From the IMG/VR virus record IMGVR_UViG_3300009506_000002, positions 78,378-142,377 of that record: a stretch of 64,000 nt of DNA, one strand, 5' to 3'. Each line of letters opens with the position of its first letter. Position 1 is the stretch's first letter. This stretch comes from a virus. The notes under the pieces are model-generated. The model was not told where the DNA came from, did no database searches, and saw nothing but the letters and a program-made list of their open reading frames with translations. Below are positions 52,833 through 63,993 of this stretch, in pieces. The position numbers were made by a program, and so were the translations under genes.

Positions 52833-53357
52833 TTAATTGTGAGTACGACCCTCGTTCTTGCTCTTAACAATGTGGTCTGCGCAATGAGAGCTTGCCCATG
52901 AGTCTGGCTTCAAAACGTGCTTGAAGCCGTAGCCGACGACCATACCAGCCAGAGCCTTTACGTGATCAGATGAAGCGTAGTGGGTGTCTGGGTTTGCGTC
53001 AACGTGGACGAGGATACGCTCACGAATTACGTCACCACGAGCCTCGGTCAGCTCGACAGCCAACTGCAATGAAAGCATAGTCTCATTGTAGAGCTTCTCC
53101 CACAGGTTATTGGTTGGTACGTTGCGGAACTTCAAGTAGAAGACACGAGCACCACGACCGAATGGGTCATGAACAATTACGCAGGTTACGTAGTTGCAGA
53201 GTCCTTTCTTGCTTGCCTTCTGCGCGTCGGTTCCGATGTGGACGATGGTTGATGAAGACGCAAGGAATGGCTCAAGACCTTCGACGAGGTCTACGTTCTT
53301 CTTGTCGATGTTACGCCACTGCTCTTGCAGTAAGTTCTCAAACTTTATCTGTGCCAT
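52833..53357 (-). CDS. RNase H-like YkuK (DUF458) family protein
   Basis: HIGTDAQ, LYNETMLSL, VHVDAN, KPDSWASSHCAD. Confidence 0.85.
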   Translation of the reverse strand: MAQIKFENLLQEQWRNIDKKNVDLVEGLEPFLASSSTIVHIGTDAQKASKKGLCNYVTCVIVHDPFGRGARVFYLKFRNVPTNNLWEKLYNETMLSLQLAVELTEARGDVIRERILVHVDANPDTHYASSDHVKALAGMVVGYGFKHVLKPDSWASSHCADHIVKSKNEGRTHN

Positions 53358-53389: not shown

Positions 53390-53465
53390 TGGTGCGCCAC
53401 CCGGGACTCGAACCCGGACTGTTCAGGGTTTAAACCTGTTGCCTCTGCCGTTGCGCTAGTGGCGC
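53390..53465 (-). tRNA. tRNA-Leu(TAA), short variable loop
   Basis: Cloverleaf, TTCGA T-loop, encoded CCA. Confidence 0.85.
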
Positions 53466-53472
53466 GCTTGCG

Positions 53473-53676
53473 TCACGCTTCGATCTCTTGAATGATGCGA
53501 TAAACGAACCCTGCATTTACGGGTTCTTTGGCTGACTGCAAACAGAGTAGCAAGAGCTGCTGTTCTGTGAGTCTAGCCCAACGTTCATCGCTCAAAGCGT
53601 TACGAACAATTCTCATTGCCTCAATCGCTGAAGATACCTTCATGAATTGGGGCTGTGAATCATCTCTGTCCTTCAT
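53473..53676 (-). CDS. Hypothetical protein
   Basis: AGGAG RBS. Confidence 0.6.
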   Translation of the reverse strand: MKDRDDSQPQFMKVSSAIEAMRIVRNALSDERWARLTEQQLLLLCLQSAKEPVNAGFVYRIIQEIEA

Positions 53677-53742
53677 ACGCTCTCCTGATAATATAGCTTA
53701 TCAGAAAAGCTTTCTAGACGCTATGACCCACGTCACATAAAC

Positions 53743-53843
53743 TGGAGCGGGCTTGCGCTGGCGGCGAAACTTGAATTCTAGGCCCAGCCAAACCACTCTT
53801 CTAAGGTACCCTCAAGTGGGACGTTATGGGATCACCAGCCCGC
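53743..53843 (-). ncRNA. Unassigned 101-nt RNA with acceptor-like stem and CCA
   Basis: GCGGGCT...AGCCCGC-T-CCA, no T-loop. Confidence 0.55.
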
Positions 53844-53849
53844 ATTGTA

Positions 53850-53923
53850 TGGATCTCCGGGGAGGGGTCGAACCTCCGTCTCCTGGTTCAGAGCCAGGTA
53901 TCCTGCCATTAGACGACCAGAGA
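53850..53923 (-). tRNA. tRNA-Gln(CTG)
   Basis: Cloverleaf with CCA. Confidence 0.9.
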
Positions 53924-53937
53924 ATAAAAGCCTAAGT

Positions 53938-54158
53938 ACCTTGAAGGGGTTACCACTGAAAGCACGTCCCAACTCATCTAAGGTTGGTCTGACCGCTTGG
54001 GCTTTGTTTTGGCTATTTTGGCCCGGCGGCACCCGGTGTTTTGTTTCTAGGTTCCTGCCTACGGATGGGACGACACACCCTTGTCAGCCCGGCGCATTTG
54101 CGGAATCCGCCGAGAGATACCGTGCTCTTTGCAAGTCATGAAGTTGCCAACCTTCAAA
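53938..54158 (-). ncRNA. Unassigned structured RNA (~220 nt)
   Basis: Nested stems ttgaagg/ccttcaa, agcacg/cgtgct, ctcggcgg/ccgccggg. Confidence 0.45.
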
Positions 54159-54215
54159 TTGGAGACGGGACATGCCCGCACTCTCCGCCACCGCATTTTT
54201 CTAAACGCGGAAAAC

Positions 54216-54293
54216 TGGTACCCGCCCCGGGATTCGAACCCGGACTGTTCAGCTTTTGAAGCTGCTGCCTCCTGCCAATTGCGCTAGACGGGC
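54216..54293 (-). tRNA. tRNA-Leu(CAA), short variable loop
   Basis: Cloverleaf with CCA. Confidence 0.85.
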
Positions 54294-54299
54294 ATATTG

Positions 54300-54507
54300 A
54301 AAACACTGACCGATAGCCGGGATTCTGTCTTGGGTGACCATTCGCCTATCTGCCACAACCCGGAATCTCAGGCTAGAACTTGCCTCATCCTGTTTGTGTT
54401 GCACAGCCCCTTGCGGTATATCTGTAGTGAAACGCCAAAGGCTCCTACAGCATGTTCTGGCTGTGTCCCGAGCTTCCTCACCGTAGTGCGGTCACCTGGT
54501 CAGTTTT
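54300..54507 (-). ncRNA. rnpB: Minimal RNase P RNA
   Basis: P1 ctgacc/ggtcag, P2 ggtgacc/ggtcacc, GAGGAAGCTCGGG, GTGCAACA, ACAGAATCCCGGCTA. Confidence 0.85.
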
Positions 54508-54694
54508 CTCTTATGATGCTGAAACCCTCAACCTTGGTGATATCGGGCAGAACATCAATGTTGTAGATCAAGCGCCATGTACCGTCTGGCAGTTGATCAA
54601 GATGTATCATCCTTTTGTCGGTACGTACCGACGTGACCTTTGAAAGCTCTAGCTCTTCGCCTGTGCCTTCAATGCGTATGGCTCTACGTGTCAA
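54500..54694 (-). CDS. Hypothetical protein
   Basis: TTG start overlapping upstream stop; stop inside RNase P P1. Confidence 0.55.
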   Translation of the reverse strand: MTRRAIRIEGTGEELELSKVTSVRTDKRMIHLDQLPDGTWRLIYNIDVLPDITKVEGFSIIREN

Positions 54695-54948
54695 GCCAGC
54701 GACACCGTGGTCAGGTTGCTCTTGCGTACACGCTGCAGAGCTGCACGCTGGTTGCCGTGCTTGTCGATGTACGGAATCAGGACTTCCTGATGTCCAGGAC
54801 TTACTGGATTGCGCCAGTGATCCTTCTTGTTCTTGGCAGCTTTGGCATCAAACGGAGCAAAGCTCGGGATGACTGCGCGCTTGCCTTTCTTCAGAACCAG
54901 TCGTTTTGTGGTTGGTGCCTCAAGGGCTGATAGATCCACCTTTTTCAT
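54691..54948 (-). CDS. Hypothetical basic protein
   Basis: AGGAG RBS. Confidence 0.6.
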   Translation of the reverse strand: MKKVDLSALEAPTTKRLVLKKGKRAVIPSFAPFDAKAAKNKKDHWRNPVSPGHQEVLIPYIDKHGNQRAALQRVRKSNLTTVSLA

Positions 54949-55122
54949 TACCCACTCCTTACTTGAACAGAAATTCTGTCATACGGAAAACTTCACTCTT
55001 TGAGTAGCCCATGATGCGAAGTTTTCTCTTTGCGCGCTCATAACCAAACTTCTTGATCAGCGCCACAATATCAGGTCCTTTAGCTCTTGCCAAAACACGA
55101 CTCCTTTTTCAATCAAAATAAC

Positions 55123-55194
55123 TGGTAGCGGCGGAAGGAGTCGAACCTTCCCACAGAGCTTATGAGTCTCCAGCCTGCACCACGCAGCGCCGCC
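55123..55194 (-). tRNA. Atypical tRNA, anticodon CAT (Met/Ile2), reduced D-arm
   Basis: CTCATAA loop, T-arm, CCA. Confidence 0.65.
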
Positions 55195-55453
55195 ATATAC
55201 AACCAGCAACTCCCTACAGCGCCAGTTGAAGCCATAACCTGACGGCACAGGGCATAACTAAACGTGGATTGAACCAGATCGTCATGCGTACCCCTTGGTC
55301 AATTTTCGCGCCTGGATGACAGTCTAAGGGAGAACTGTCAGAGCACCTACGCCCACCGTTTTGATTGAGACGTGCCCGCCACTTTCAGGCTGCCAGCTCC
55401 TCCCCTCTCGGGGCGTTCTCTAATAAACCACCGTCTCTTGCTTCAAAGCAATT

Positions 55454-55531
55454 TGGATGCTGAAGCCCTGGAGTTGAACCAGGTTTAAAGAGGTTATGAG
55501 CCTCCAGCAGATACCGACCTGCCCGCCAGCA
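55454..55531 (-). tRNA. Atypical tRNA, anticodon CAT, bulged acceptor stem
   Basis: CTCATAA loop, TTCAACT T-loop, CCA. Confidence 0.6.
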
Positions 55532-55536
55532 ATAAT

Positions 55537-55614
55537 TGGTTGCGGAGGTCGGATTCGAACCGACGACCTCTAGGTTATGAGCCTAGCGAGCTAAACCGCT
55601 GCTACCACTCCGCA
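55537..55614 (-). tRNA. tRNA-Met(CAT), initiator-like body
   Basis: Cloverleaf with CCA. Confidence 0.9.
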
Positions 55615-55619
55615 ATAAT

Positions 55620-55704
55620 TGGTGCCCTTGGAGGGATTCGAACCCTCACGCCCTAAGACACTGGCCTCTGATGCCAGCGCGTCTACCAATTCCACCACAA
55701 GGGC
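55620..55704 (-). tRNA. tRNA-Leu(CAG)
   Basis: Class II cloverleaf with CCA. Confidence 0.9.
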
Positions 55705-55709
55705 AGTGA

Positions 55710-55937
55710 TCAGCTAACGACGAAGTTGTAAATCAGATGCTTCATCGTAGCCTTCGGATATTTCTCCTTAATGCTATCAACTCCAGCAAAACGTTCTTTC
55801 GATCCTGTGTAGAGCGTCGATTGCTTGCGGTCCCTGACGAACTCCTTCTGATCTTCATTCCAGAAGCAATTCGGGATCCTTGCATGAGCAATGCGAGCCG
55901 GTGTCGTTTCGGGATTTACCTGAATCTGACCATTCAT
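55710..55937 (-). CDS. Hypothetical protein, paralogue of 56521-56760
   Basis: PA.IAHA...F..E.QK.FVRD; promoter at 55960-55988. Confidence 0.7.
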   Translation of the reverse strand: MNGQIQVNPETTPARIAHARIPNCFWNEDQKEFVRDRKQSTLYTGSKERFAGVDSIKEKYPKATMKHLIYNFVVS

Positions 55938-55970
55938 TATATTCTCCTTCGCGTGCTCTACTCTAGCATC

Positions 55971-56222
55971 TTATGAGGTTGCTGTCAATGGCACATATTC
56001 TCCGTCTTTGTAAGACGTGATGTACTCAAGAGACAATCGCGGATTCTTATGCTCGAAGTTTAAGGAACGGGCAACTTCGATGGTAGAATCACGTTCCGCA
56101 TTGTGACGGATACACTCGTCACACTTTGCATGCGAAACCGGACCCAACTGACTTGCGACTACCCAGAGGTGCGTCTTTTTGCCGCACACATCACAAGTAT
56201 CGAACAAATTAGGTTCACGCAT
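55971..56222 (-). CDS. Zinc-finger protein, paralogue of 22117-22521
   Basis: CDVC...ASQLGPVSHAKCDEC. Confidence 0.7.
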   Translation of the reverse strand: MREPNLFDTCDVCGKKTHLWVVASQLGPVSHAKCDECIRHNAERDSTIEVARSLNFEHKNPRLSLEYITSYKDGEYVPLTATS

Positions 56223-56235
56223 AACAACCTCACAA

Positions 56236-56293
56236 TGGCGCGCCTACAGGGATTCGAACCCTCACGCCCTAAGACACTGGCCTCTGATGCCAG
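56236..56293 (-). pseudogene. Chimeric 3' fragment of tRNA-Leu(CAG)
   Basis: About 46 bp identical to the 55620 tRNA, foreign acceptor 3' strand, no 5' half. Confidence 0.8.
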
Positions 56294-56524
56294 AGTGACC
56301 AGCCTATCCACTCCAATATCGATGCCATTATCCCACTCCACAGAATGGCCCCACAGGCCAACCTGTGCGGTTGCAAATGCCTTGGCGTCTTTCAGTGGGG
56401 CGAAAGCCTTGCTGCTGGAAATGAGCTTGCCGAGGTCGATTTCGTATGCGTTTCCATCATTGCAGTTGATGGAGATGGAGTGCCTTTTGATCACGGCTAC
56501 GTTAGTGATGGTGTTCTTCTTCAT
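56294..56524 (-). pseudogene. DUF2442-family protein fragment fused into tRNA remnant
   Basis: FAPLKD..AF..AQVGLWGHSVEWDNGIDIG.DRL. Confidence 0.7.
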
Positions 56525-56760
56525 GGGTTCAACCTCTTCCATTCTTTCAGCAACAGCTCTTTGACTTTTTCAAAGCCACTCTCCCGAGCTTTGGCTCCCA
56601 CGTAACGGGTTGCCATGTTGATGTCCCTGACGAATGCTTTCTGCTCTTCACTGAAGAACACATCTGCCAAGAACGCATGAGCCAGCACAGCAGGACACTT
56701 TTCACTTTCAACCACCATGACCTGGTTCTCATTCAACGGAAATTCAATTTGCATGATCAA
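56521..56760 (-). CDS. Hypothetical protein, paralogue of 55710-55937
   Basis: Promoter TTGACA-N17-TAGAGT at 56778-56806; AGGAG. Confidence 0.7.
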   Translation of the reverse strand: MIMQIEFPLNENQVMVVESEKCPAVLAHAFLADVFFSEEQKAFVRDINMATRYVGAKARESGFEKVKELLLKEWKRLNP

Positions 56761-56815
56761 CTCCTTTCAATGGTGTAACTCTACACGAATCAGGAGCACT
56801 TGTCAAGCAAAGAAT

Positions 56816-56901
56816 TGGAGTCGCCAGAGGGAATCGAACCCTACGAGCCTTAGCTAAACGGTTTTGCAGACCGTTCCTAGATCCATCTGGGCACTGACGA
56901 C
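56816..56901 (-). tRNA. tRNA-Cys(GCA) with 8/4, tRNA-Sec-like fold
   Basis: 8-bp acceptor, 4-bp T-stem, long D-stem, variable arm, U73. Confidence 0.8.
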
Positions 56902-56902
56902 A

Positions 56903-56977
56903 TGGAGCCCCTGAGAGGAATCGAACCCCTATCCCTGGTTTAGAAGACCTGTATTCTGTCCGTTGAACTACAGGGGC
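56903..56977 (-). tRNA. tRNA-Arg(TCT)
   Basis: Cloverleaf with CCA. Confidence 0.85.
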
Positions 56978-56982
56978 ATGTC

Positions 56983-57057
56983 TGGTTCCCAGCAGGAGAA
57001 TCGAACTCCTATTTCATCCATACCAGGGATGTGTAATAGCCTTTATACTAGCCGGGA
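56983..57057 (-). tRNA. tRNA-Thr(GGT)
   Basis: Cloverleaf with CCA. Confidence 0.85.
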
Positions 57058-57115
57058 ATATGACGCTGACGACTAGCGTGCAGCGCAACTCTTTCTGCCA
57101 ATGGCAGAAGAGATT

Positions 57116-57190
57116 TGGTACTCCGACGGGGAATCGAACCCCGACCTCGAGATTGAGAGTCTCGTGATCTAACCGTTAATCTACCGGAGC
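57116..57190 (-). tRNA. tRNA-Glu(CTC)
   Basis: Cloverleaf with CCA. Confidence 0.9.
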
Positions 57191-57493
57191 ATGTTTGAGA
57201 ATTACCTCGTCACTGATCTTGTACGCCAACACAGCTTCCTGCTCGTAGTAGGCGATTGTCAAGTCAACAACGCGATCAATCTCTTCACGAGTGGCAATCA
57301 ACCTTACAGGAATCATCCTCTCATGAAATTCAACGCCATCAGGGTTGACCCACTTGCCTTTGGCTGGAGTCAAGATTGTCATGCCACCAGAGATGGCTTT
57401 GACTTTTTCATCCCATACCCTGTGGAATCTGGTTCTGATTGGTCTGCCATCATTCCTGATGGTAGGAACCAAAATTTCCCACATTCCCCTCAT
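57176..57493 (-). CDS. Conserved phage hypothetical protein
   Basis: WEILVPT...ISGGMTI..P.KGKW...ERMIPVR...YYEQEAV. Confidence 0.75.
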   Translation of the reverse strand: MRGMWEILVPTIRNDGRPIRTRFHRVWDEKVKAISGGMTILTPAKGKWVNPDGVEFHERMIPVRLIATREEIDRVVDLTIAYYEQEAVLAYKISDEVILKHAPVD

Positions 57494-57507
57494 TGCGCAA
57501 CCCTCGC

Positions 57508-57675
57508 TTAGCCCATCTCACGGGCAATCTCTTTCCTGTCATCGTTGGCAACGCCCTCGACGAACGGCAAAGTGTTGCGAATGAACACACGAAAATCTGC
57601 ATCGGACAATTTCGCATTGTCAACGTTTGCAGCTATCGTCTGTACAAAATTCTTTGCTCTCACCTTCGCTCTCAT
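57508..57675 (-). CDS. Hypothetical protein
   Basis: AAGGAG RBS right after tRNA CCA. Confidence 0.6.
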   Translation of the reverse strand: MRAKVRAKNFVQTIAANVDNAKLSDADFRVFIRNTLPFVEGVANDDRKEIAREMG

Positions 57676-57691
57676 GATCAACTCCTTCAAA

Positions 57692-57768
57692 TGGTGCCGC
57701 CCACCGGGCTCGAACCGATAACCTGCGCCTTACGAGTGCGCTGCGCTGCCAGATTGCGCCAGAACGGC
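57692..57768 (-). tRNA. tRNA-Thr(CGT)
   Basis: Cloverleaf with CCA. Confidence 0.85.
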
Positions 57769-57776
57769 ATATAAAT

Positions 57777-57852
57777 TGGAGCGGCTACGGGGACTCGAAC
57801 CCCGACCTTCTGGTTGGAAGCCAGACATGCTGCCATTGAACACCATAGCCGC
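57777..57852 (-). tRNA. tRNA-Gly(TCC)
   Basis: Cloverleaf with CCA. Confidence 0.9.
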
Positions 57853-58046
57853 ATTATAGTGGAGCAGCGACTTTGTTACAGACACCATCGCGCGCGGTGC
57901 CTAACGGCATTGCTCCACTCCCCGTTTGTGACTCAGGTACGACAGGACGACCTTACAATCCGATTCTTTGAGATCGGCTAACTCCCGGCCCTTTTCCGTC
58001 AGCGTGGGGTTGGTACTGCACAGAGGAACGTCAACTCCTCTTGATA

Positions 58047-58120
58047 TGGTGCGGTCCGAGGGAATCGAACCCTCATCTCCTGGCTGGCAACCAAGTGTCC
58101 TTTCCGAACATCAGCGCTGC
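58047..58120 (-). tRNA. Degenerate tRNA-Gly(GCC); 5' acceptor strand mismatched
   Basis: Intact anticodon and T arms, CCA; 5' strand overlapped by ORF end. Confidence 0.55.
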
Positions 58121-58275
58121 AATCTTGCAAGCGCGGCCTGAGACTGTTCGTCTCCCGGACAACGCTTCAGGTGACGCGCAATGCGACGAACCTTGTTGGT
58201 CTTCCATCGCATACTGGCATTGTAGTTCGCCTTACAGGGTCTCTTTTTGCGCCCTGGATTGTGCTTTGCGGCCAT
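58111..58275 (-). CDS. 54-aa basic protein (not in ORF track)
   Basis: MAAKHNPGRKKRPC...ARHLKRCPGDEQS; GGAG RBS. Confidence 0.6.
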   Translation of the reverse strand: MAAKHNPGRKKRPCKANYNASMRWKTNKVRRIARHLKRCPGDEQSQAALARLQR

Positions 58276-58419
58276 TTCTCCACTCCTTCACAAGATAATA
58301 TATGACTCCGCCAATGAAGATGATCTTCAAGGCGAATGAAAACAATACCCAGGCTATGATAAAGTCATTGTTCATGCGTTTACCTCACGTCACGAAGTAT
58401 TTATCATGCCTCTTTTATA

Positions 58420-58494
58420 TGGAGCCCCAGCACGGAATCGAACCGCGTTCTCTCGCTTACAAGGCGAGGCATCATCCCTAAATGTTTCAGGGGC
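58420..58494 (-). tRNA. tRNA-Thr(TGT)
   Basis: Cloverleaf with CCA; promoter at 58515-58543. Confidence 0.8.
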
Positions 58495-58552
58495 CTATGT
58501 AACCTCTGATGTGAATTGTACAGCAATCAGAGGTCTTTGTCAACATCTTTTT

Positions 58553-58644
58553 TGGTAGTCGCCCAGGGATTCGAACCCCGTCTAGGCCGCTAATCTGGCG
58601 GCAAAGCGGATATAAGCCGCTCTCGCGTACCAACGCCGACGACC
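58553..58644 (-). tRNA. Atypical tRNA, anticodon TAT, long variable arm
   Basis: 4-nt D-loop, 6-bp anticodon stem, GCCGC/GCGGC variable stem, CCA. Confidence 0.7.
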
Positions 58645-59244
58645 TTATTGAGCCAGTCGGAACCCACGAATGAAGTCAACCAACTGCGATTCCCACAGTG
58701 TGTACTTACCAACTTCCTTCTCGTGATCAACAAACTCTCGAGCAATGCTGCCGAGGCCTAGCTTCTGCTCAGAGTTCTCTGCCCAATACTGCTCCTCACG
58801 TATGCAGCCAACAAACTCCTCAAAGTTGAGCGGATAGTTGCCATAAGGAGTCTGAAAGTGCTTGAACACTCCGCGCCACTTGTCGAGGGCGCCCCAGATC
58901 TTCTCAGGCACAATGATGGCAACGTTAGTCAGAATGTTGTGAAGTGAATCGTAGTCTTCGAAGAAGTCACTCCACGGATATGGGTTGTTCGCCGAGCTGA
59001 AAAGCTGACGAATCTCCTGCATGGTTTTGTTGTTGCCACCATTCAGGCAGTAAACGATAGGCGATGGTGCCCACTCCCATACCATCTGTGCCGCGCTGTC
59101 ATCGCCCATGCGATACTTGAGCGCAAGAGCAATTCCCGCGTGATGCGCTTGGATGCCCTGCTGAATACTCGACAGATAAAAGTTGCCAAAGTGGTATGCC
59201 CGGAGGCCGTGGTCGTTGTCGCTCAAATTTCCTTTCATGATCAT
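58645..59244 (-). CDS. Peptidyl-tRNA hydrolase (Pth2)-like phage protein
   Basis: YLSSIQQGIQAHHA, W..IVYCLNGG, FFED..L..ILTNVAI. Confidence 0.6.
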   Translation of the reverse strand: MIMKGNLSDNDHGLRAYHFGNFYLSSIQQGIQAHHAGIALALKYRMGDDSAAQMVWEWAPSPIVYCLNGGNNKTMQEIRQLFSSANNPYPWSDFFEDYDSLHNILTNVAIIVPEKIWGALDKWRGVFKHFQTPYGNYPLNFEEFVGCIREEQYWAENSEQKLGLGSIAREFVDHEKEVGKYTLWESQLVDFIRGFRLAQ

Positions 59245-59425
59245 CTCCTGTTGACGCCCTATACGCCCTTTGAAGTCATTATTAGTCGAATTGCTTTAGT
59301 CAAGTTGCCTTCAGTCTTTCGGAGCGCTTGGAGCGCTTCTACGAAGCTACAGGCGGTTCTAAAACGTAGTATCTGAACCTTCTTCTGAAGGTCGCTTCCC
59401 ATTCATCATAGTTACCTCCTCATAT

Positions 59426-59502
59426 TGGTACTTCCTGAAGGAATCGAACCTTCTCGCCTCTCCTTGTAAGGGAGCGTCCTTCCCATTCGGACCCAAGGAA
59501 GC
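59426..59502 (-). tRNA. tRNA-Val(TAC)
   Basis: Cloverleaf with CCA. Confidence 0.8.
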
Positions 59503-59509
59503 ATAGAAC

Positions 59510-59584
59510 TGGCAGCCCGACAGGGACTCGAACCCCGATCTGCGGTTTTGGAGACCGCCATGATAGCCTTTACACCATCGAGCC
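59510..59584 (-). tRNA. tRNA-Trp(CCA)
   Basis: Cloverleaf with CCA. Confidence 0.9.
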
Positions 59585-59704
59585 ATATTGAGTGCGCACT
59601 ACTGTCTACGCCTCGGACGGTCGCTCCATCTCTGATAGCAAGCTACCAAAGATGTATCCACAAGAACCCCTACTTGGGATAACTTTCAGGGCTAGTGCCA
59701 CAAC

Positions 59705-59781
59705 TGGTGGGACGCCTGGGATTCGAACCCAGATCTCATAGGTTAAAAGCCTAGGATAATTGCCATTTATACTAACGACCC
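59705..59781 (-). tRNA. tRNA-Lys(TTT)
   Basis: Cloverleaf with CCA. Confidence 0.85.
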
Positions 59782-59788
59782 ATTGAAC

Positions 59789-59874
59789 TGGTGCGCCCTG
59801 TAAGATTCGAACTTACTCACCCGGAGGGAACAGTTTTACAGACTGCCGCAGCTCTCCCACTCTGCCGAGGACGC
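59789..59874 (-). tRNA. tRNA-Tyr(GTA)
   Basis: Class II cloverleaf with CCA. Confidence 0.85.
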
Positions 59875-59881
59875 ATGTTTT

Positions 59882-60030
59882 CTTAGGAGCCTACTGGAAT
59901 CGAACCAGTGATCAACGGCTTGTACCGTTCGGGATAACCCAACCCTGCGTTGCAGCTTCGGGAGCCATGCACAGCTCTGATCCTAATCTACGTACAGGAA
60001 GCCTTCCCACCAAATGCTACAGCCCCTAAG
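59882..60030 (-). ncRNA. tRNA-like 149-nt RNA without CCA
   Basis: Closing stem cttaggggct/ggctcctaag, T-arm actgg-ttcgatt-ccagt, large insert. Confidence 0.55.
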
Positions 60031-60033
60031 AAT

Positions 60034-60107
60034 TGGCTCCGCGAGAGGGGATCGAACCCCCATTTCCAGGTTAACAGCCTAGCGTGATGCCATTACACTA
60101 CCGCGGA
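60034..60107 (-). tRNA. tRNA-Asn(GTT)
   Basis: Cloverleaf with CCA. Confidence 0.9.
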
Positions 60108-60115
60108 ATATGAAT

Positions 60116-60191
60116 TGGTGGATCGCCCGGGACTCGAACCCGGATCTGTCAGATTAAGAGTCTGCGATAATAGCCATTATACGAACGATCC
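60116..60191 (-). tRNA. tRNA-Lys(CTT)
   Basis: Cloverleaf with CCA. Confidence 0.9.
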
Positions 60192-60194
60192 GTT

Positions 60195-61075
60195 TTGAAA
60201 CTCACCCTTATTGGTTCATACGAAGAACTGATCAATTCAGCGCATGAACTAATAAAAGTGCAAGCCTTTAGAATTTGCTTGCTTGATGCAGCTTTAGCTC
60301 TTGTACGCTTTGAGGTGCTACCCTCCAGCTTGAGAACCTTTCCACGAAGCGCCATGCTTCGTACTACACCATGACCGCCTTTTATTTTACTGGTCTGGCA
60401 TTTGACCACTAACGCAGGTTTACTCTAGGATCTCTTTCCTTACAACACCGGCCAAAGTGCTGCAAGTGCAGTCGTCCTAAACTCACCGCCGCCTTGCGAG
60501 CTTTGGTAAGTCCTCATTACTCCGAAGAGTTGAGGAATTAGGTCACTTTTCTACCTACGTGGGGCAACGTCTTTGCGTTTTTGATTTAATACAAAGTTGG
60601 AATTGAACCAACACAAGTTCCTTTAAAGGGAACCGACCTACCATTAGTCGATTTGTGAACCTACCACGATGAGCGTTGCCCTGTGACTTCATACCCTTTT
60701 GAGGCACAAAATATCACCCACCGAATGTCTTTTGCCTTGCTATCAGCTACTAAACCATACTCTACGACCCTGGCAGCAAGTGTACTACCAAACCCATATC
60801 ATATTGCTATCTTGCTCTAGGTTGCAACACCTCGAACTCAATAACTACCCTTTGACCATCAGATTTCGCTGGCTTGCATCCTTATGCCGATTTGCGGTCA
60901 GCATCGACTTCACCTTTGGTTATTACGATCAGTCTTTTCAGGTCCAACTTCAAACCTATCTCCCACCGGAGCAGAAGACGAGTGGTCTTGGCTTGCTTGA
61001 ATGAACCATCTCTGGCGGGGCGCTGTAGGAAGCACTTCCCCTTTCCTGGCTTTCACCATTTATTCTTGCGTTAGG
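60195..61075 (-). ncRNA. Large structured ncRNA, GOLLD-like (boundaries approximate)
   Basis: About 900 nt with no credible ORF inside tRNA array; own promoter at 61156-61184; many hairpins; segments such as AAGAATAAA and CCTCAAAAGGGTATGAAG recall GOLLD. Confidence 0.6.
60588..60658 (-). tRNA. tRNA-like module with anticodon TTA embedded in the large ncRNA
   Basis: D-arm gact-aatggta-ggtc, gttcc-CTTTAAA-ggaac, gttgg-TTCAATT-ccaac; weak acceptor, no CCA. Confidence 0.65.
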
Positions 61076-61191
61076 ACGTCAAGCCGTCCATTAAATTGTA
61101 AAAGCTTTTGTAACTTTCTGCGCTTGCGCGCTGGTCAGTCACTGTCTTGATGTGAACTCTACCACAACTGGGAGTTCTTGTCAAGCTCTTT

Positions 61192-61428
61192 TTAGCGGTA
61201 CTGCGGGAATGGTGTGAACTCTTTTCCCTTATTGTACGGTTTCGCCATCAGTGCAACGATCGCCTTTTCAGCGGCTGCCTTGTTGGCATAAACATACACG
61301 CCTTCTTTGTTGCTCAGAAGCTTGTTCTTGACTTTGTCGTAGATGTGATAGCGGCCTGTGGCCTTGCCATTACGTTCTCCGCGCAGCTCTTGTGACAGCT
61401 CCTGCTTCTTGGCGTTTGAAAGTGCCAT
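61192..61428 (-). CDS. Hypothetical basic protein
   Basis: AGGAG RBS; promoter at 61447-61475. Confidence 0.7.
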   Translation of the reverse strand: MALSNAKKQELSQELRGERNGKATGRYHIYDKVKNKLLSNKEGVYVYANKAAAEKAIVALMAKPYNKGKEFTPFPQYR

Positions 61429-61521
61429 GTCTTTCTCCTTATGCGTATTCTAGCACGCTCTGCAGACAAAGTCAAGCTCTTTCTGCAAACATAAATCGTT
61501 GAACTATTTATGTCTGCATGA

Positions 61522-61597
61522 TGGTAGGCGACCGGGGAGTCGAACCCACGTTCCCCAGATTAAACGTCTGGTGCTTCACCACTAAAGCTTTCCACCC
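61522..61597 (-). tRNA. Atypical tRNA-Lys(TTT) with G33 and bulged T-stem
   Basis: ccaga-CGTTTAA-tctgg; CCA. Confidence 0.55.
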
Positions 61598-61601
61598 ATA
61601 A

Positions 61602-61678
61602 TGGCTCCCTAGGTAGGATTCGAACCTACAACGTCTGGCTTAACAGGCCAGTGCCCCTGCCCTCAGGGCCCCTAGGGA
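61602..61678 (-). tRNA. tRNA-Asn(GTT)
   Basis: Cloverleaf with CCA. Confidence 0.8.
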
Positions 61679-61684
61679 ATAAAC

Positions 61685-61777
61685 TGGAGGAGAGTAGAGG
61701 AATCGAACCCCCAGGATGGTTCTAGCACCCTGCGCTAGTTTTCAAGACTAGTTGCGCTCCATTGCGCCGTACTCTCC
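61685..61777 (-). tRNA. tRNA-Ser(TGA), 8/4-compatible fold
   Basis: ggagagta/tactctcc acceptor, long variable arm, CCA. Confidence 0.85.
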
Positions 61778-61853
61778 ATTCTCGCCTGCACTACATCTTG
61801 AGGAATCCTCTTGCGCGCTGCATTCTTGTCTCCGACGAACGAACATGTCATGC

Positions 61854-61943
61854 TGGCGGGTAGTCAGGGAATCGAACCCTGGGAACGCTTTTACACGTTC
61901 TACGGTTTAGCAAACCGCTGCATTACCTCTCTGCCAACTACCC
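61854..61943 (-). tRNA. tRNA-Ser(GCT)
   Basis: Class II cloverleaf with CCA. Confidence 0.9.
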
Positions 61944-61950
61944 ATTGAAC

Positions 61951-62030
61951 TGGCGCGCCTGAAGGGATTCGAACCCCCATGTATCCAATTAGCCTTTCAA
62001 CTGGTTCGTAGCCAGAGGGCATACAGGCGC
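61951..62030 (-). tRNA. Rearranged tRNA-Arg(ACG) lacking a normal D-arm
   Basis: Acceptor and T-arm intact; CTACGAA loop right after position 9 region; D-loop-like AATTGGATA 3' of anticodon arm. Confidence 0.65.
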
Positions 62031-62036
62031 ATTCTT

Positions 62037-62291
62037 TTATTCAGTGAACACCACAACGGCATCCACACGCAGTCCTGATTCGAATACAGACTCGACATCA
62101 GTGCGGCACTTTACGAGCTCGTTTGATCTGCGGTTGATGGCAAAATCTGCAAGCTGCATGAGTTTGTATTCCAAGAACCCAGGACGGATTGAACCATCGG
62201 GTTCCTTACAGCTCTGCATGGCGTTATCTACATGCCTCATTGAGGAATAGTAGTAGGTCATATCTCCACGAACAACTTTGATCATCAACAA
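62037..62291 (-). CDS. Hypothetical protein
   Basis: AAGGAG RBS after tRNA CCA. Confidence 0.65.
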   Translation of the reverse strand: MLMIKVVRGDMTYYYSSMRHVDNAMQSCKEPDGSIRPGFLEYKLMQLADFAINRRSNELVKCRTDVESVFESGLRVDAVVVFTE

Positions 62292-62302
62292 ACTCCTTTC
62301 AA

Positions 62303-62376
62303 TGGATCACCGGGCTGGGGTCGAACCAGCATTGAAGGCTTCAAAGGCCCTTGTCCTGCCATTAGACGACCGGTGA
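62303..62376 (-). tRNA. tRNA-Gln(TTG)
   Basis: Cloverleaf with CCA. Confidence 0.9.
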
Positions 62377-62380
62377 ATAA

Positions 62381-62563
62381 TCACTTACACGAGCGAATGT
62401 ACTCATTGTGAAACTTACCTCTCACCTTAATGAAAGGGACGCCAGTAAGTCTCCAATAAATCATCTGACAAAAAGCAAGTGCAGCAGAAATCCAGATAAT
62501 TAGGTAAAAACCTGCGGCCAATAAGCCTACCTTGATTTCATCAGTTACTTCTCTCAAAGTCAT
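62381..62563 (-). CDS. Small membrane protein
   Basis: Hydrophobic helix; AAGGAG RBS. Confidence 0.6.
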   Translation of the reverse strand: MTLREVTDEIKVGLLAAGFYLIIWISAALAFCQMIYWRLTGVPFIKVRGKFHNEYIRSCK

Positions 62564-62579
62564 TCATCGCTCCTTCAAA

Positions 62580-62653
62580 TGGTCGGGGTAGGAGGAATCG
62601 AACCTCCGCTACGTGCTCCCAAAGCACGGGTGCTACCTCTATACCATACCCCG
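62580..62653 (-). tRNA. tRNA-Pro(TGG)
   Basis: Cloverleaf with CCA. Confidence 0.9.
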
Positions 62654-62654
62654 A

Positions 62655-62763
62655 TGGCGGCAAGGGAAGGATTCGAACCCCCATACTATCCTCACGGCGG
62701 CGCCTTGGATGACGGACCGTGAGAGCCTTACCATGCTATACTTGTTCGACGACGGAACTTGCA
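62655..62763 (-). ncRNA. tRNA-like RNA with T-arm and CCA but no anticodon loop
   Basis: gcaag/cttgc acceptor, ggggg-TTCGAAT-ccttc, ctcacgg/ccgtgag extended arm. Confidence 0.6.
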
Positions 62764-62770
62764 AGCTAAC

Positions 62771-62845
62771 TGGTACTCCGACGGGGAATCGAACCCCGAT
62801 CTTTGCCTTGAAAGGGCAACGATCTAACCGTTAATCTACCGGAGC
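62771..62845 (-). tRNA. tRNA-Glu(TTC)
   Basis: Cloverleaf with CCA. Confidence 0.9.
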
Positions 62846-62915
62846 ATAATGTGACCCCAATGGCTTTCAGTCTCTCCTAGGGTTCGGATTATCAACTGTT
62901 ACACCATACACAATC

Positions 62916-62992
62916 TGGTCGCCTGAGCAGGACTCGAACCTGCGTATGACACCGGTTATCAGCCGATCGCTAAACCCCTCAGCTACCAGGCG
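62916..62992 (-). tRNA. tRNA-Ile(GAT)
   Basis: Cloverleaf with CCA. Confidence 0.85.
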
Positions 62993-63000
62993 TTGTAAAC

Positions 63001-63078
63001 TGGCGGCCTAGACGAGATTCGAACTCGCAACCTCTCCCGTGACAGGGGAACGCTCTAACCAATTGGAGCTACTAAGCC
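63001..63078 (-). tRNA. tRNA-Asp(GTC)
   Basis: Cloverleaf with CCA. Confidence 0.9.
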
Positions 63079-63158
63079 ATGCCTCATTGCATCCTAAGGA
63101 CTCGCTCGCTTTGCAATGTGCTCTCACTTTGCTAGGGTGAGCAGCGTTTATCCGAATA

Positions 63159-63233
63159 TGGCGACCCGACGGGGAATCGAACCCCGATCTCCGGAGAGAC
63201 AGTCCAGTATGATGACCATTACACCACCGGGCC
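63159..63233 (-). tRNA. tRNA-Asp(GTC), second copy
   Basis: Cloverleaf with CCA. Confidence 0.85.
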
Positions 63234-63346
63234 ATGAATTGAGAATACACTAACAGGTTCGAACTGCTCGGGTCGGCTCTCGAGAGGGCCGTCCTTGATC
63301 CATCAACCTCGTCTTTCAGGACGTCCATGAGGCGATATTCTCAAAA

Positions 63347-63432
63347 TGGTGGAGCACCGTGGACTCGAACCACGAATGGAAACCATACTACCGGGTTACA
63401 GCCAGGTGCCTTGCCAATTCAGCCAGTGCTCC
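63347..63432 (-). tRNA. tRNA-Tyr(GTA), second copy
   Basis: Class II cloverleaf with CCA. Confidence 0.85.
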
Positions 63433-63629
63433 AAATGCGTCAAACAAGGACGCTATGTTTTTGTCTGCCTCAGGTCCCGCCAGCGATGTGCCTTTGTGAC
63501 CCTACTCCACCCGCGCAAACTCCGCGATCTGAATCGGCGCGCGGCCAGTGACGGCGGCGATCGAAACCGATTCGTGAAACGCATGGGTGATTGATCATGT
63601 GTTGATTCATCACCCACTCAACAAGTGTA

Positions 63630-63658
63630 ACTCTACCATGAAGTCAAGCTCTTGTCAA
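63630..63658 (-). promoter_or_regulatory. sigma70-type promoter in tRNA array
   Basis: TTGACA-N17-TAGAGT. Confidence 0.75.
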
Positions 63659-63678
63659 GTTCTTTTTTTCAACTTGCT

Positions 63679-63753
63679 TGGGGGTGACCGGCGGGAATTG
63701 AACCCGCGTAATCGCGTTCACAGCGCGAGGCCTTACCATTAGGCTACGGCCAC
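63679..63753 (-). tRNA. tRNA-His(GTG)
   Basis: Cloverleaf, C73, CCA. Confidence 0.85.
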
Positions 63754-63772
63754 ACCGAAGCAAGCTGAAAAT

Positions 63773-63850
63773 TGGTACCCGCCCCGGGATTCGAACCCGG
63801 ACTGTACGGTATCTAAAACCGTCGCCTCCTGCCAATTGCGCTAGACGGGC
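63773..63850 (-). tRNA. tRNA-Leu(TAG), short variable loop
   Basis: Body nearly identical to the 54216 tRNA except anticodon arm. Confidence 0.85.
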
Positions 63851-63919
63851 ATAAAGTAGCAAAAATGACGCATAAAACCAGCATTGACGGTTTTAAGCTG
63901 CATTTCTGCAACATTAAAC

Positions 63920-63993
63920 TGGTCTGGATGGGAGGAATCGAACCTCCATACCGTGGTTCCAGGCCACAGCGTTTACCATTAACCTACATCCAG
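63920..63993 (-). tRNA. tRNA-Pro(TGG), C33 variant
   Basis: tgtgg-CCTGGAA-ccacg; CCA. Confidence 0.8.

Follow-up and report, generated by a model that had tools for sequence, protein, structure and literature searches.

We found that a T4-like phage carries, within a minus-strand array of tRNA genes, a 212-nt gene whose predicted product is a much reduced RNase P RNA descended from bacterial type A (46.3 bits against the Rfam model RF00010 and 156.1 bits against R1, a covariance model of its own family). This agrees with the first-pass annotation of the same DNA, which had described a phage-encoded, extremely minimised RNase P RNA of about half the normal bacterial length (E. coli rnpB has 377 nt) and had quoted RNase P motifs that are indeed present on the minus strand at 54299-54510. 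We think it quite likely that the locus encodes a working, trans-acting type A RNase P ribozyme, which matures the phage tRNAs together with the RnpA protein of the host. This reading is based on homology, fold, covariation, invariant core residues, genomic context and the absence of RnpA, from which we infer expression, processing, use of host RnpA and catalysis.

The DNA analysed here, which we will henceforth refer to as the window, is the last 64 kb of an IMG/VR record of 142,377 bp with direct terminal repeats. The source phage is T4-like (it encodes UvsX and further T4-superfamily genes), and 17 window ORFs have matches, at ~39% identity, in the T4-like Stenotrophomonas phage DLP6. The window contains 36 tRNA genes between 53.4 and 64 kb, on the minus strand throughout. 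The 5' end of the mini RNase P RNA lies immediately past the stop codon of a 64-codon ORF, and its 3' end (54299) is separated by 5 nt from the nearest tRNA gene, tRNA-Leu(CAA), which starts at 54293. The two small ORFs immediately upstream of the element (64 and 85 aa) had no Pfam or PHROG family and no homologue at the other loci, and a scan for promoters and terminators around the window element returned nothing specific.

Several other features of this region were recorded. The spacers between the tRNA genes (53390-63993, minus strand) are short and rich in A/T. The sole tRNA-Cys(GCA) (56816-56902, minus strand) is scored by Rfam as tRNA-Sec (RF01852, 50.2 bits, cut-off 47), in agreement with the 8/4-type fold that the first-pass annotation had described, and a tRNA-shaped element with a UUA (ochre) anticodon (60588-60658, minus strand) is among the three of 36 predictions that lack a terminal CCA. 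About 1 kb downstream of the mini RNase P RNA lies the gene (52833-53357, minus strand) of a 174-aa PF04308 protein (RNase H-like, YkuK/DUF458; E 3e-24).

Match to type A RNase P RNA and covariation of the core

A sensitive Rfam search of positions 54150-54650 (cmscan, E-value mode), akin to the cmsearch that the first-pass annotation had proposed, gave a match to RF00010 (RNaseP_bact_a) at 54298-54507 on the minus strand (46.3 bits, E 2.9e-13, or ~4e-11 when rescaled to the 64-kb window). The match spans model positions 1-367 end to end, with the S-domain and P18 appearing as deletions, and in clan competition RF00010 was best while two lower-scoring clan members were suppressed. For comparison, we fetched E. 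coli rnpB, which scores 318.6 bits against the same model. The score of the window copy is under the RF00010 gathering threshold (100 bits), which is why the element is missed by a gathering-mode Rfam scan (in the window this reported tRNAs alone), by a whole-genome family search (RF00010 against the phage's own record gave nothing at E <= 1, though one candidate scored) and by routine annotation. As a side observation, whole-genome family searches can overlook such RNAs: no match at E <= 1 stands here against a cmscan E-value of 2.9e-13.

Judged by these alignments, the window element is a clear homologue of bacterial type A RNase P RNA. The aligned parts comprise P1/P2, P3, CR-I, P5, J5/15, P15-P17, CR-IV and CR-V; the P7-P14 block, ~140 positions of the model, is reduced to ~50 nt in the window copy, and the 23 model positions of P18 to 1 nt, so that the CR-IV strand is directly joined to P15. 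The family model R1 (see below) matches the window copy with E 8e-38 over model positions 1-201 and has no other match in the phage record of 142,377 bp. Among the 60 columns that are conserved to at least 90% in the family, the window copy has the consensus residue in 59. Its P1 contains an A.G mismatch and its P16 a U.U; folded as a single sequence, it shows only a modest gain in energy over shuffles (z = -1.94). The features of the element are the following (window coordinates):

54299-54510, minus strand: mini RNase P RNA gene, full P1 included, 212 nt (RF00010 and family model R1)
54301-54508, minus strand: core recognised by the models, ~200 nt
54498-54510, minus strand: P1 5' strand, pairs with 54299-54311 (12 pairs and one A.G mismatch)
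54490-54496, minus strand: P2 5' strand GGUGACC, pairs with 54333-54339 (GGUCACC)
54479-54488, minus strand: P3, just 3 bp and a UACG tetraloop, 96.6% paired in the family
54466-54474, minus strand: P4 5' strand in CR-I (GAGGAAGCUCGGGA), 3 bp, bulged U (54471), 5 bp
54459-54465, minus strand: P5 5' strand CACAGCC, pairs with 54402-54408
54454-54458, minus strand: P6 pseudoknot 5' strand AGAAC, pairs with GUUCU (54375-54379) in the P17 loop
54422-54450, minus strand: residual S-domain of 29 nt (stem, internal loop, hairpin), replaces P7-P14
54445-54450 with 54422-54427, minus strand: stem S1 (4-6 bp in the family), 97.5% paired, compensatory changes
54434-54442, minus strand: hairpin S2, 95.2% paired, compensatory changes, length differs among loci
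54399-54402, minus strand: J5/15 GCAA, aligned to the GCAA of RF00010
54354-54398, minus strand: P15-P16-P17 arm, P15 93.3% and P16 94.2% paired, covarying
54358-54360, minus strand: L15 GGU, within CGGGUU (54356-54361), invariant in 30 sequences
54340-54351, minus strand: CR-IV strand (AGAUAGGCGAAU), in which UAG..GAAUG fits the RF00010 consensus
54315-54322, minus strand: P4 3' strand (UCCCGGCU) in CR-V, preceded by J2/4 ACAGAA (54323-54328)
54299-54311, minus strand: P1 3' strand, partner of 54498-54510

We investigated the predicted fold in an alignment (A1) of the window copy and 29 distinct homologues, which together with a hand-written structure gave the covariance model R1; P4 was left out of this model. 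The helices counted in A1 were P1, P2, P3, P4, P5, S1, S2, P15, P16 and P17. Across the 49 pairs in 11 helices, 93.1% of cells were paired, compared with 68.8% in column shuffles and 32-42% when partners were slid by 1-3 columns, and both-sided changes occurred at 38 of the 49 pairs. Specifically, the sequence of P1 is wholly unlike from locus to locus and P1 covaries at 11 of 11 counted pairs (30 sequences), P2 has both-sided changes at 6 of 6 counted pairs (95.6% of cells paired), the P3 homologues alternate between CAC/GUG, CUC/GAG and CUG/CAG, and P5 is 100% paired with both-sided changes at 4 of 5 counted pairs.

The P4 pseudoknot, on whose formation the first-pass annotation had made its proposal depend, can form. 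In the window it consists of A37-U196, G38-C195, C39-G194, the bulged U40 and then C41-G193 through A45-U189, and this geometry (3 bp, bulged U, 5 bp) is exactly that of E. coli P4. It was 100% paired in the 30 sequences, and three of its pairs (GC/AU/CG) show compensatory changes. In a set of metagenome sequences picked by the 5' strand only, i.e., with the 3' strand left free, 191 of 192 pairs form and the variable P4 position alternates between G-C and A-U without exception; further compensatory variants were found in DLP6 and in megaphages (UCGCG/CGCGG and UCAAC/GUUGA).

By contrast, the earlier statement that P16 and P17 are missing did not hold. The P15-P16-P17 arm is present, with flanks (AAACAG and CGGGUU) that match AAAUAG and CGGGUA of E. 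coli. Its P17 loop takes part in P6, the pseudoknot of type A RNAs (AGAAC/GUUCU). For 43 distinct sequences, the mean RNAduplex energy of P6 was -10.2 kcal/mol with native and -6.3 kcal/mol with swapped partners, and none of 2000 partner-swap permutations was as good as the native mean (p < 1/2000). As predicted from sequence and covariation, the catalytic half of the RNA is complete, with P1-P6 and P15-P17 all retained.

Conservation extends to the unpaired parts of this core. CR-I, CR-IV, CR-V and J5/15 GCAA fit the RF00010 consensus, and within the family they are either invariant or conserved to at least 90%. In J5/15, the counterpart of E. coli G246-A249 (A248 included), G109 and A112 do not vary, and C110 and A111 reach at least 90% conservation; in CR-IV (AG....AAUG), the AG and AAU are invariant or nearly so; and the invariant L15 GGU is presumably the binding site of the tRNA 3'-CCA. 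Given that J5/15 GCAA, L15 GGU and CR-IV AG....AAUG all lie outside the pattern with which the loci were searched, their invariant or nearly invariant residues are hard to explain unless the RNA binds and cuts pre-tRNA.

The phage family, its genomic context and the reduced S-domain

Scanning viral contigs for the two P4 strands with a spacer of 125-155 nt returned 52 loci against a chance expectation of ~6; 51 of these were visibly homologous, and R1 recovers all 51 at 81-189 bits. Three more scans, with shorter or longer spacers, gave 77 loci, of which 75 match R1. By means of this one narrow P4 pattern only, elements of ~190-300 nt were thus found in more than 125 virus contigs; relatives are 50-76% identical, with pairing kept. 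Family copies are also carried by 25 metagenome contigs and by the uncultured megaphages LR756502 and LR756501 (642 and 735 kb). The cultured Stenotrophomonas maltophilia phage DLP6 has a copy at 105773-106019 of KU682439.2 (108 bits, E 5e-26), which occupies a stretch left unannotated between a CDS and tRNA-Arg-CCG and stops 5-6 nt short of each, the same arrangement as in the window.

In 185,579 species genomes, the motif pattern matched 62 times, of which R1 identified 58 as chance matches and four as real, all of them on MAG contigs; in the isolate bacterial genomes of this set, the pattern and R1 found no copy. The contig JBBACR010000001.1 (L108), a 'Candidatus Pacearchaeota archaeon' MAG, and the IMG/VR jumbo phage L038 both measure 425,361 bp and carry an element of 155.4 bits, and L108 probably represents a phage genome that was binned with an archaeon by mistake; similar mis-binning may explain the matches in Planctomycetia, Flavobacteriales and Nitrosotalea MAGs (L078, L112 and L104, respectively). 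Using blastn against 50,697 phage records, the window copy and the best-scoring relative found no match, and a third query matched uncultured megaphages only. An exact 27-mer of the window copy had no match in the metagenome contigs, hence no near-identical copy was obtained.

The association with tRNA genes is a property of the family. The 52 element-bearing stretches contain 650 tRNA genes, every one of them on the strand of the element, and in 35 of the 52 a tRNA lies within 200 nt of the element (at most 20 nt upstream in 18 and at most 20 nt downstream in 20). The first-pass annotation had suggested a ribozyme tuned to non-canonical (8/4) tRNAs around it, for which we found no support: the more than 125 phage tRNA arrays in which the family sits consist mostly of ordinary tRNAs, and the window tRNAs carry canonical C-domain determinants, with CCA encoded by 33 of the 36 genes and U (T in the gene) at position -1, mostly as AT, in 30 of the 36.

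Some arrays contain further elements of note. PF04308 homologues occur within the tRNA arrays of six other loci (L004, L007, L014, L023, L026 and L052) and of DLP6 (AAY80_173), 0.1-3 kb from their RNase P-like RNA; the protein may be a nuclease associated with tRNA arrays, and whether it has to do with the ribozyme is a matter of speculation. One subgroup of loci has, immediately upstream of the full-length element, an additional partial copy of ~125-130 nt; this was seen in L025 (3410-3539), L214 (8410-8539), L219 (13946-14075), L222 (2713-2836), L224 (109-232) and L228 (63-192). These cover model positions 14-172 or 21-148 at 48-50 bits, lack P1 and the 3' P4 strand, and could be either a tandem remnant or a distinct short RNA. 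Genes or fragments of tmRNA were also detected in element-bearing arrays (L024, 11740-12086; L037, 1020-1389; L197, 4702-4784; L181, 2217-2300).

The loss of the S-domain, as initially described, was borne out in part. P13/14 and P18 are deleted in the RF00010 alignment, as reported, and the P7-P14 block as a whole is gone; however, a conserved 29-nt stem-loop stands in its place, and its hairpin S2, which has a P12-like variability in length, may be a remnant of P12. In the window copy the internal loop of this module has GA on its 5' side and GUUUCA on its 3' side, and across the family the loop residues GGAG and CGUU..AC are invariant or nearly so. Neither CR-II (ACAGAAA) nor CR-III (GGUAAAC) was recognisable in the module when it was compared with E. 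coli rnpB and the RF00010 consensus. An assignment of the module to P10/P11-J11/12-P12 was rejected, as by-eye likeness to the RF00010 consensus is too weak, bar the length variability of S2.

Longer phage relatives score 47-101 bits on RF00010. Specifically, a 305-nt phage copy that has kept P7-P10 reaches 101 bits and so exceeds the cut-off, and the others score 47-89 bits. Since these longer relatives bridge the minimal and the canonical forms, the minimal form looks, from the sequences compared, like the end point of a stepwise reduction within phages. In bacterial enzymes, losing the module that recognises the T-loop (CR-II/CR-III, P7-P14) lowers substrate affinity.

Proposed function, cofactor and rival explanations

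As there is no separate flanking promoter or terminator, the RNA would most likely be transcribed as part of the minus-strand tRNA array, between the small ORF and tRNA-Leu(CAA), and be freed by the same end-processing as the tRNAs, with the RNase P cut at the 5' end of tRNA-Leu, 5 nt downstream, setting its 3' side. The released RNA would then fold into a full catalytic domain (P1-P6 and P15-P17) and bind pre-tRNA by its acceptor stem, with the 3'-CCA pairing to L15 GGU and the -1 nucleotide touching an A of J5/15 GCAA, whereupon the 5' leader would be cleaved at the P4 metal site. With the elbow-reading S-domain reduced to a small stem-loop, substrate choice should rest mainly on C-domain determinants, and the encoded CCA and the U at -1 of the window tRNAs are determinants read by the catalytic domain. 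Bacterial RNase P RNA stripped down to its C-domain retains activity when RnpA is present.

The first-pass annotation had noted that the window has no RnpA gene, and we found none (PF00825) in the whole 142,377-bp phage record, nor in five jumbo carriers, four of which are 97% complete or more. As the phage has no RnpA gene of its own, the protein cofactor is most likely host RnpA. The RNA sites touched by RnpA, namely CR-IV, CR-V and P2/P3, are all retained in the phage RNA. Across the loci examined, no protein gene that could be a candidate cofactor consistently adjoins the element. The product of AAY80_165, immediately upstream of the DLP6 copy, proved unrelated to the window's PF04308 protein.

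One alternative is that the RNA is catalytic and dispenses with host RnpA, acting alone or with an unrelated phage protein, for which the PF04308 protein would be a candidate. This would agree with the absence of RnpA from six phage records and with hosts that are probably very diverse (the carriers range from T4-like phages to 735-kb megaphages), since reliance on a single host protein is less obvious with such diversity; moreover, the window, DLP6 and six more loci each have a PF04308 gene at a distance of 0.1-3 kb from the element. These are, however, only 8 of ~55 stretches examined, the gene never adjoins the element, and no protein gene is consistently found beside it. Furthermore, RnpA and its contact sites on the RNA are conserved across bacteria, with the sites retained here, and bacterial RNase P RNA without its protein needs non-physiological salt. 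We thus give independence from host RnpA a small chance.

The conservation of the core bears on two further possibilities, both of which deny catalysis. The RNA might be a mimic or decoy which soaks up host RnpA or pre-tRNA and thereby biases tRNA maturation or shuts down host RNase P. A lost S-domain would suit such a role, and one RNase P-like RNA of a virus is already known to be inactive: that of camelpox/orthopoxvirus gave no pre-tRNA cleavage in vitro and was once proposed to be a decoy (PMC3001073). Yet a protein sponge needs neither an invariant bulged U in P4, J5/15 GCAA and L15 GGU nor covarying P4 and P6 pseudoknots, and a decoy placed among the phage's own tRNA genes would harm phage tRNAs too; because the active-site and substrate-binding residues are conserved, we consider a decoy unlikely, and its chance slim. 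Alternatively, the element could be a functionless, decaying remnant of a captured host rnpB, as its roughly half-normal length and its score under the Rfam cut-off might suggest. Against this, more than 125 homologues have a common reduced architecture with compensatory changes in every helix, relatives that are only 50-76% identical have kept their pairs, the window copy has retained 59 of 60 conserved columns, and the homologues are not assembly duplicates (43 distinct sequences in set A2). Covariation thus practically excludes a dead remnant.

We therefore prefer the reading of a working ribozyme that uses host RnpA. Several points speak against it, namely the score under the Rfam threshold, the loss of the T-loop module and of P18, the mismatches in P1 and P16, the modest gain in fold energy, the scan that detected no dedicated promoter or terminator, and the inactivity of the camelpox RNA in vitro. 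Taking the family as a whole, many phage lineages (T4-like phages, jumbo phages and megaphages of 642-735 kb) probably encode an active RNase P ribozyme, which would be the smallest natural bacterial-type form (190-300 nt), without an elbow reader, and would work with host RnpA or with none. Given that hosts own an RNase P already, the selective benefit to the phage is not obvious, and the family raises the question of why a phage with 30-40 tRNA genes should bring its own processing enzyme, be it for capacity, for independence from host shut-off or for different substrate rules.

Comparison with known systems

RNase P RNA is regarded as a hallmark gene of cells and organelles, and the phage family would extend the RNase P ribozyme to viruses. 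Searches of the full-text literature (subscription journals lie outside its coverage) brought up no account of an RNase P RNA encoded by a phage, and the DLP6 genome paper makes no mention of RNase P or a ribozyme. If the proposed function is true, this would be the first known virus-encoded RNase P and one of very few known virus-encoded trans-acting ribozymes, giving phages control over tRNA maturation during infection, possibly with a relaxed substrate range. The family would also show which parts are dispensable under natural selection (P7-P14 and P18 lost; P4, P6, L15 GGU and J5/15 kept) and would provide structural and synthetic biology with a natural ribozyme of compact size (~200 nt), e.g., for the processing of tRNA arrays; with DLP6 as a cultured carrier, it is within reach of bench tests.

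With E. coli M1 RNA (rnpB) and the RF00010 consensus, the phage RNA has in common P1-P6, P15-P17 and the P4 geometry with its bulged U, and with M1 RNA also CR-I (GAGGAA..UC.GG), J5/15 GCAA, L15 GGU, CR-IV (AG....AAUG) and CR-V (ACAGAA.CC.GGCUA). It differs from M1 RNA in being viral and in lacking P7-P11, P13, P14, P18 and recognisable CR-II and CR-III, and R1 fails to recognise E. coli rnpB as a whole (15 bits).

Among viruses, the full-text literature yielded no earlier RNase P-like RNA besides that of camelpox (PMC3001073). The latter belongs to a eukaryotic virus and has a loose structural similarity to RNase P RNA, whereas the homology of the phage family is clear and its catalytic core intact and covarying. 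Reduced RNase P RNAs of cells have been described in CPR bacteria, Mycoplasma fermentans and Thermoproteaceae; those of CPR bacteria and M. fermentans lack P12-P14 and P18, fall under the Rfam thresholds and needed manual refolding (PMC8172020). Unlike the phage RNA, however, they are cellular and essential and have kept P7-P11, and some have lost the GGU that is invariant in the phage family.

The phage RNA adopts the same design solution as archaeal type T RNase P RNA, i.e., ~200 nt with the catalytic domain kept. Type T, reportedly described by Lai et al. in 2010 from Pyrobaculum and other Thermoproteaceae, is said to be an RNA of ~200 nt that has kept its catalytic domain and shed almost all of its specificity domain, and the Pyrobaculum RNA is active without an S-domain. 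Type T is, however, archaeal, works with archaeal proteins and is the only RNase P RNA of its cell, whereas the core of the phage RNA is of bacterial type A, including P6/P16/P17 and L15 GGU, and its best clan match is RF00010. Engineered counterparts have also been made: C-domain-only or 'Micro P' RNAs from the Pace, Pan and Harris laboratories reportedly cleave pre-tRNA without an S-domain, especially with RnpA. Those are laboratory constructs, and the phage RNA would be their naturally selected equivalent.
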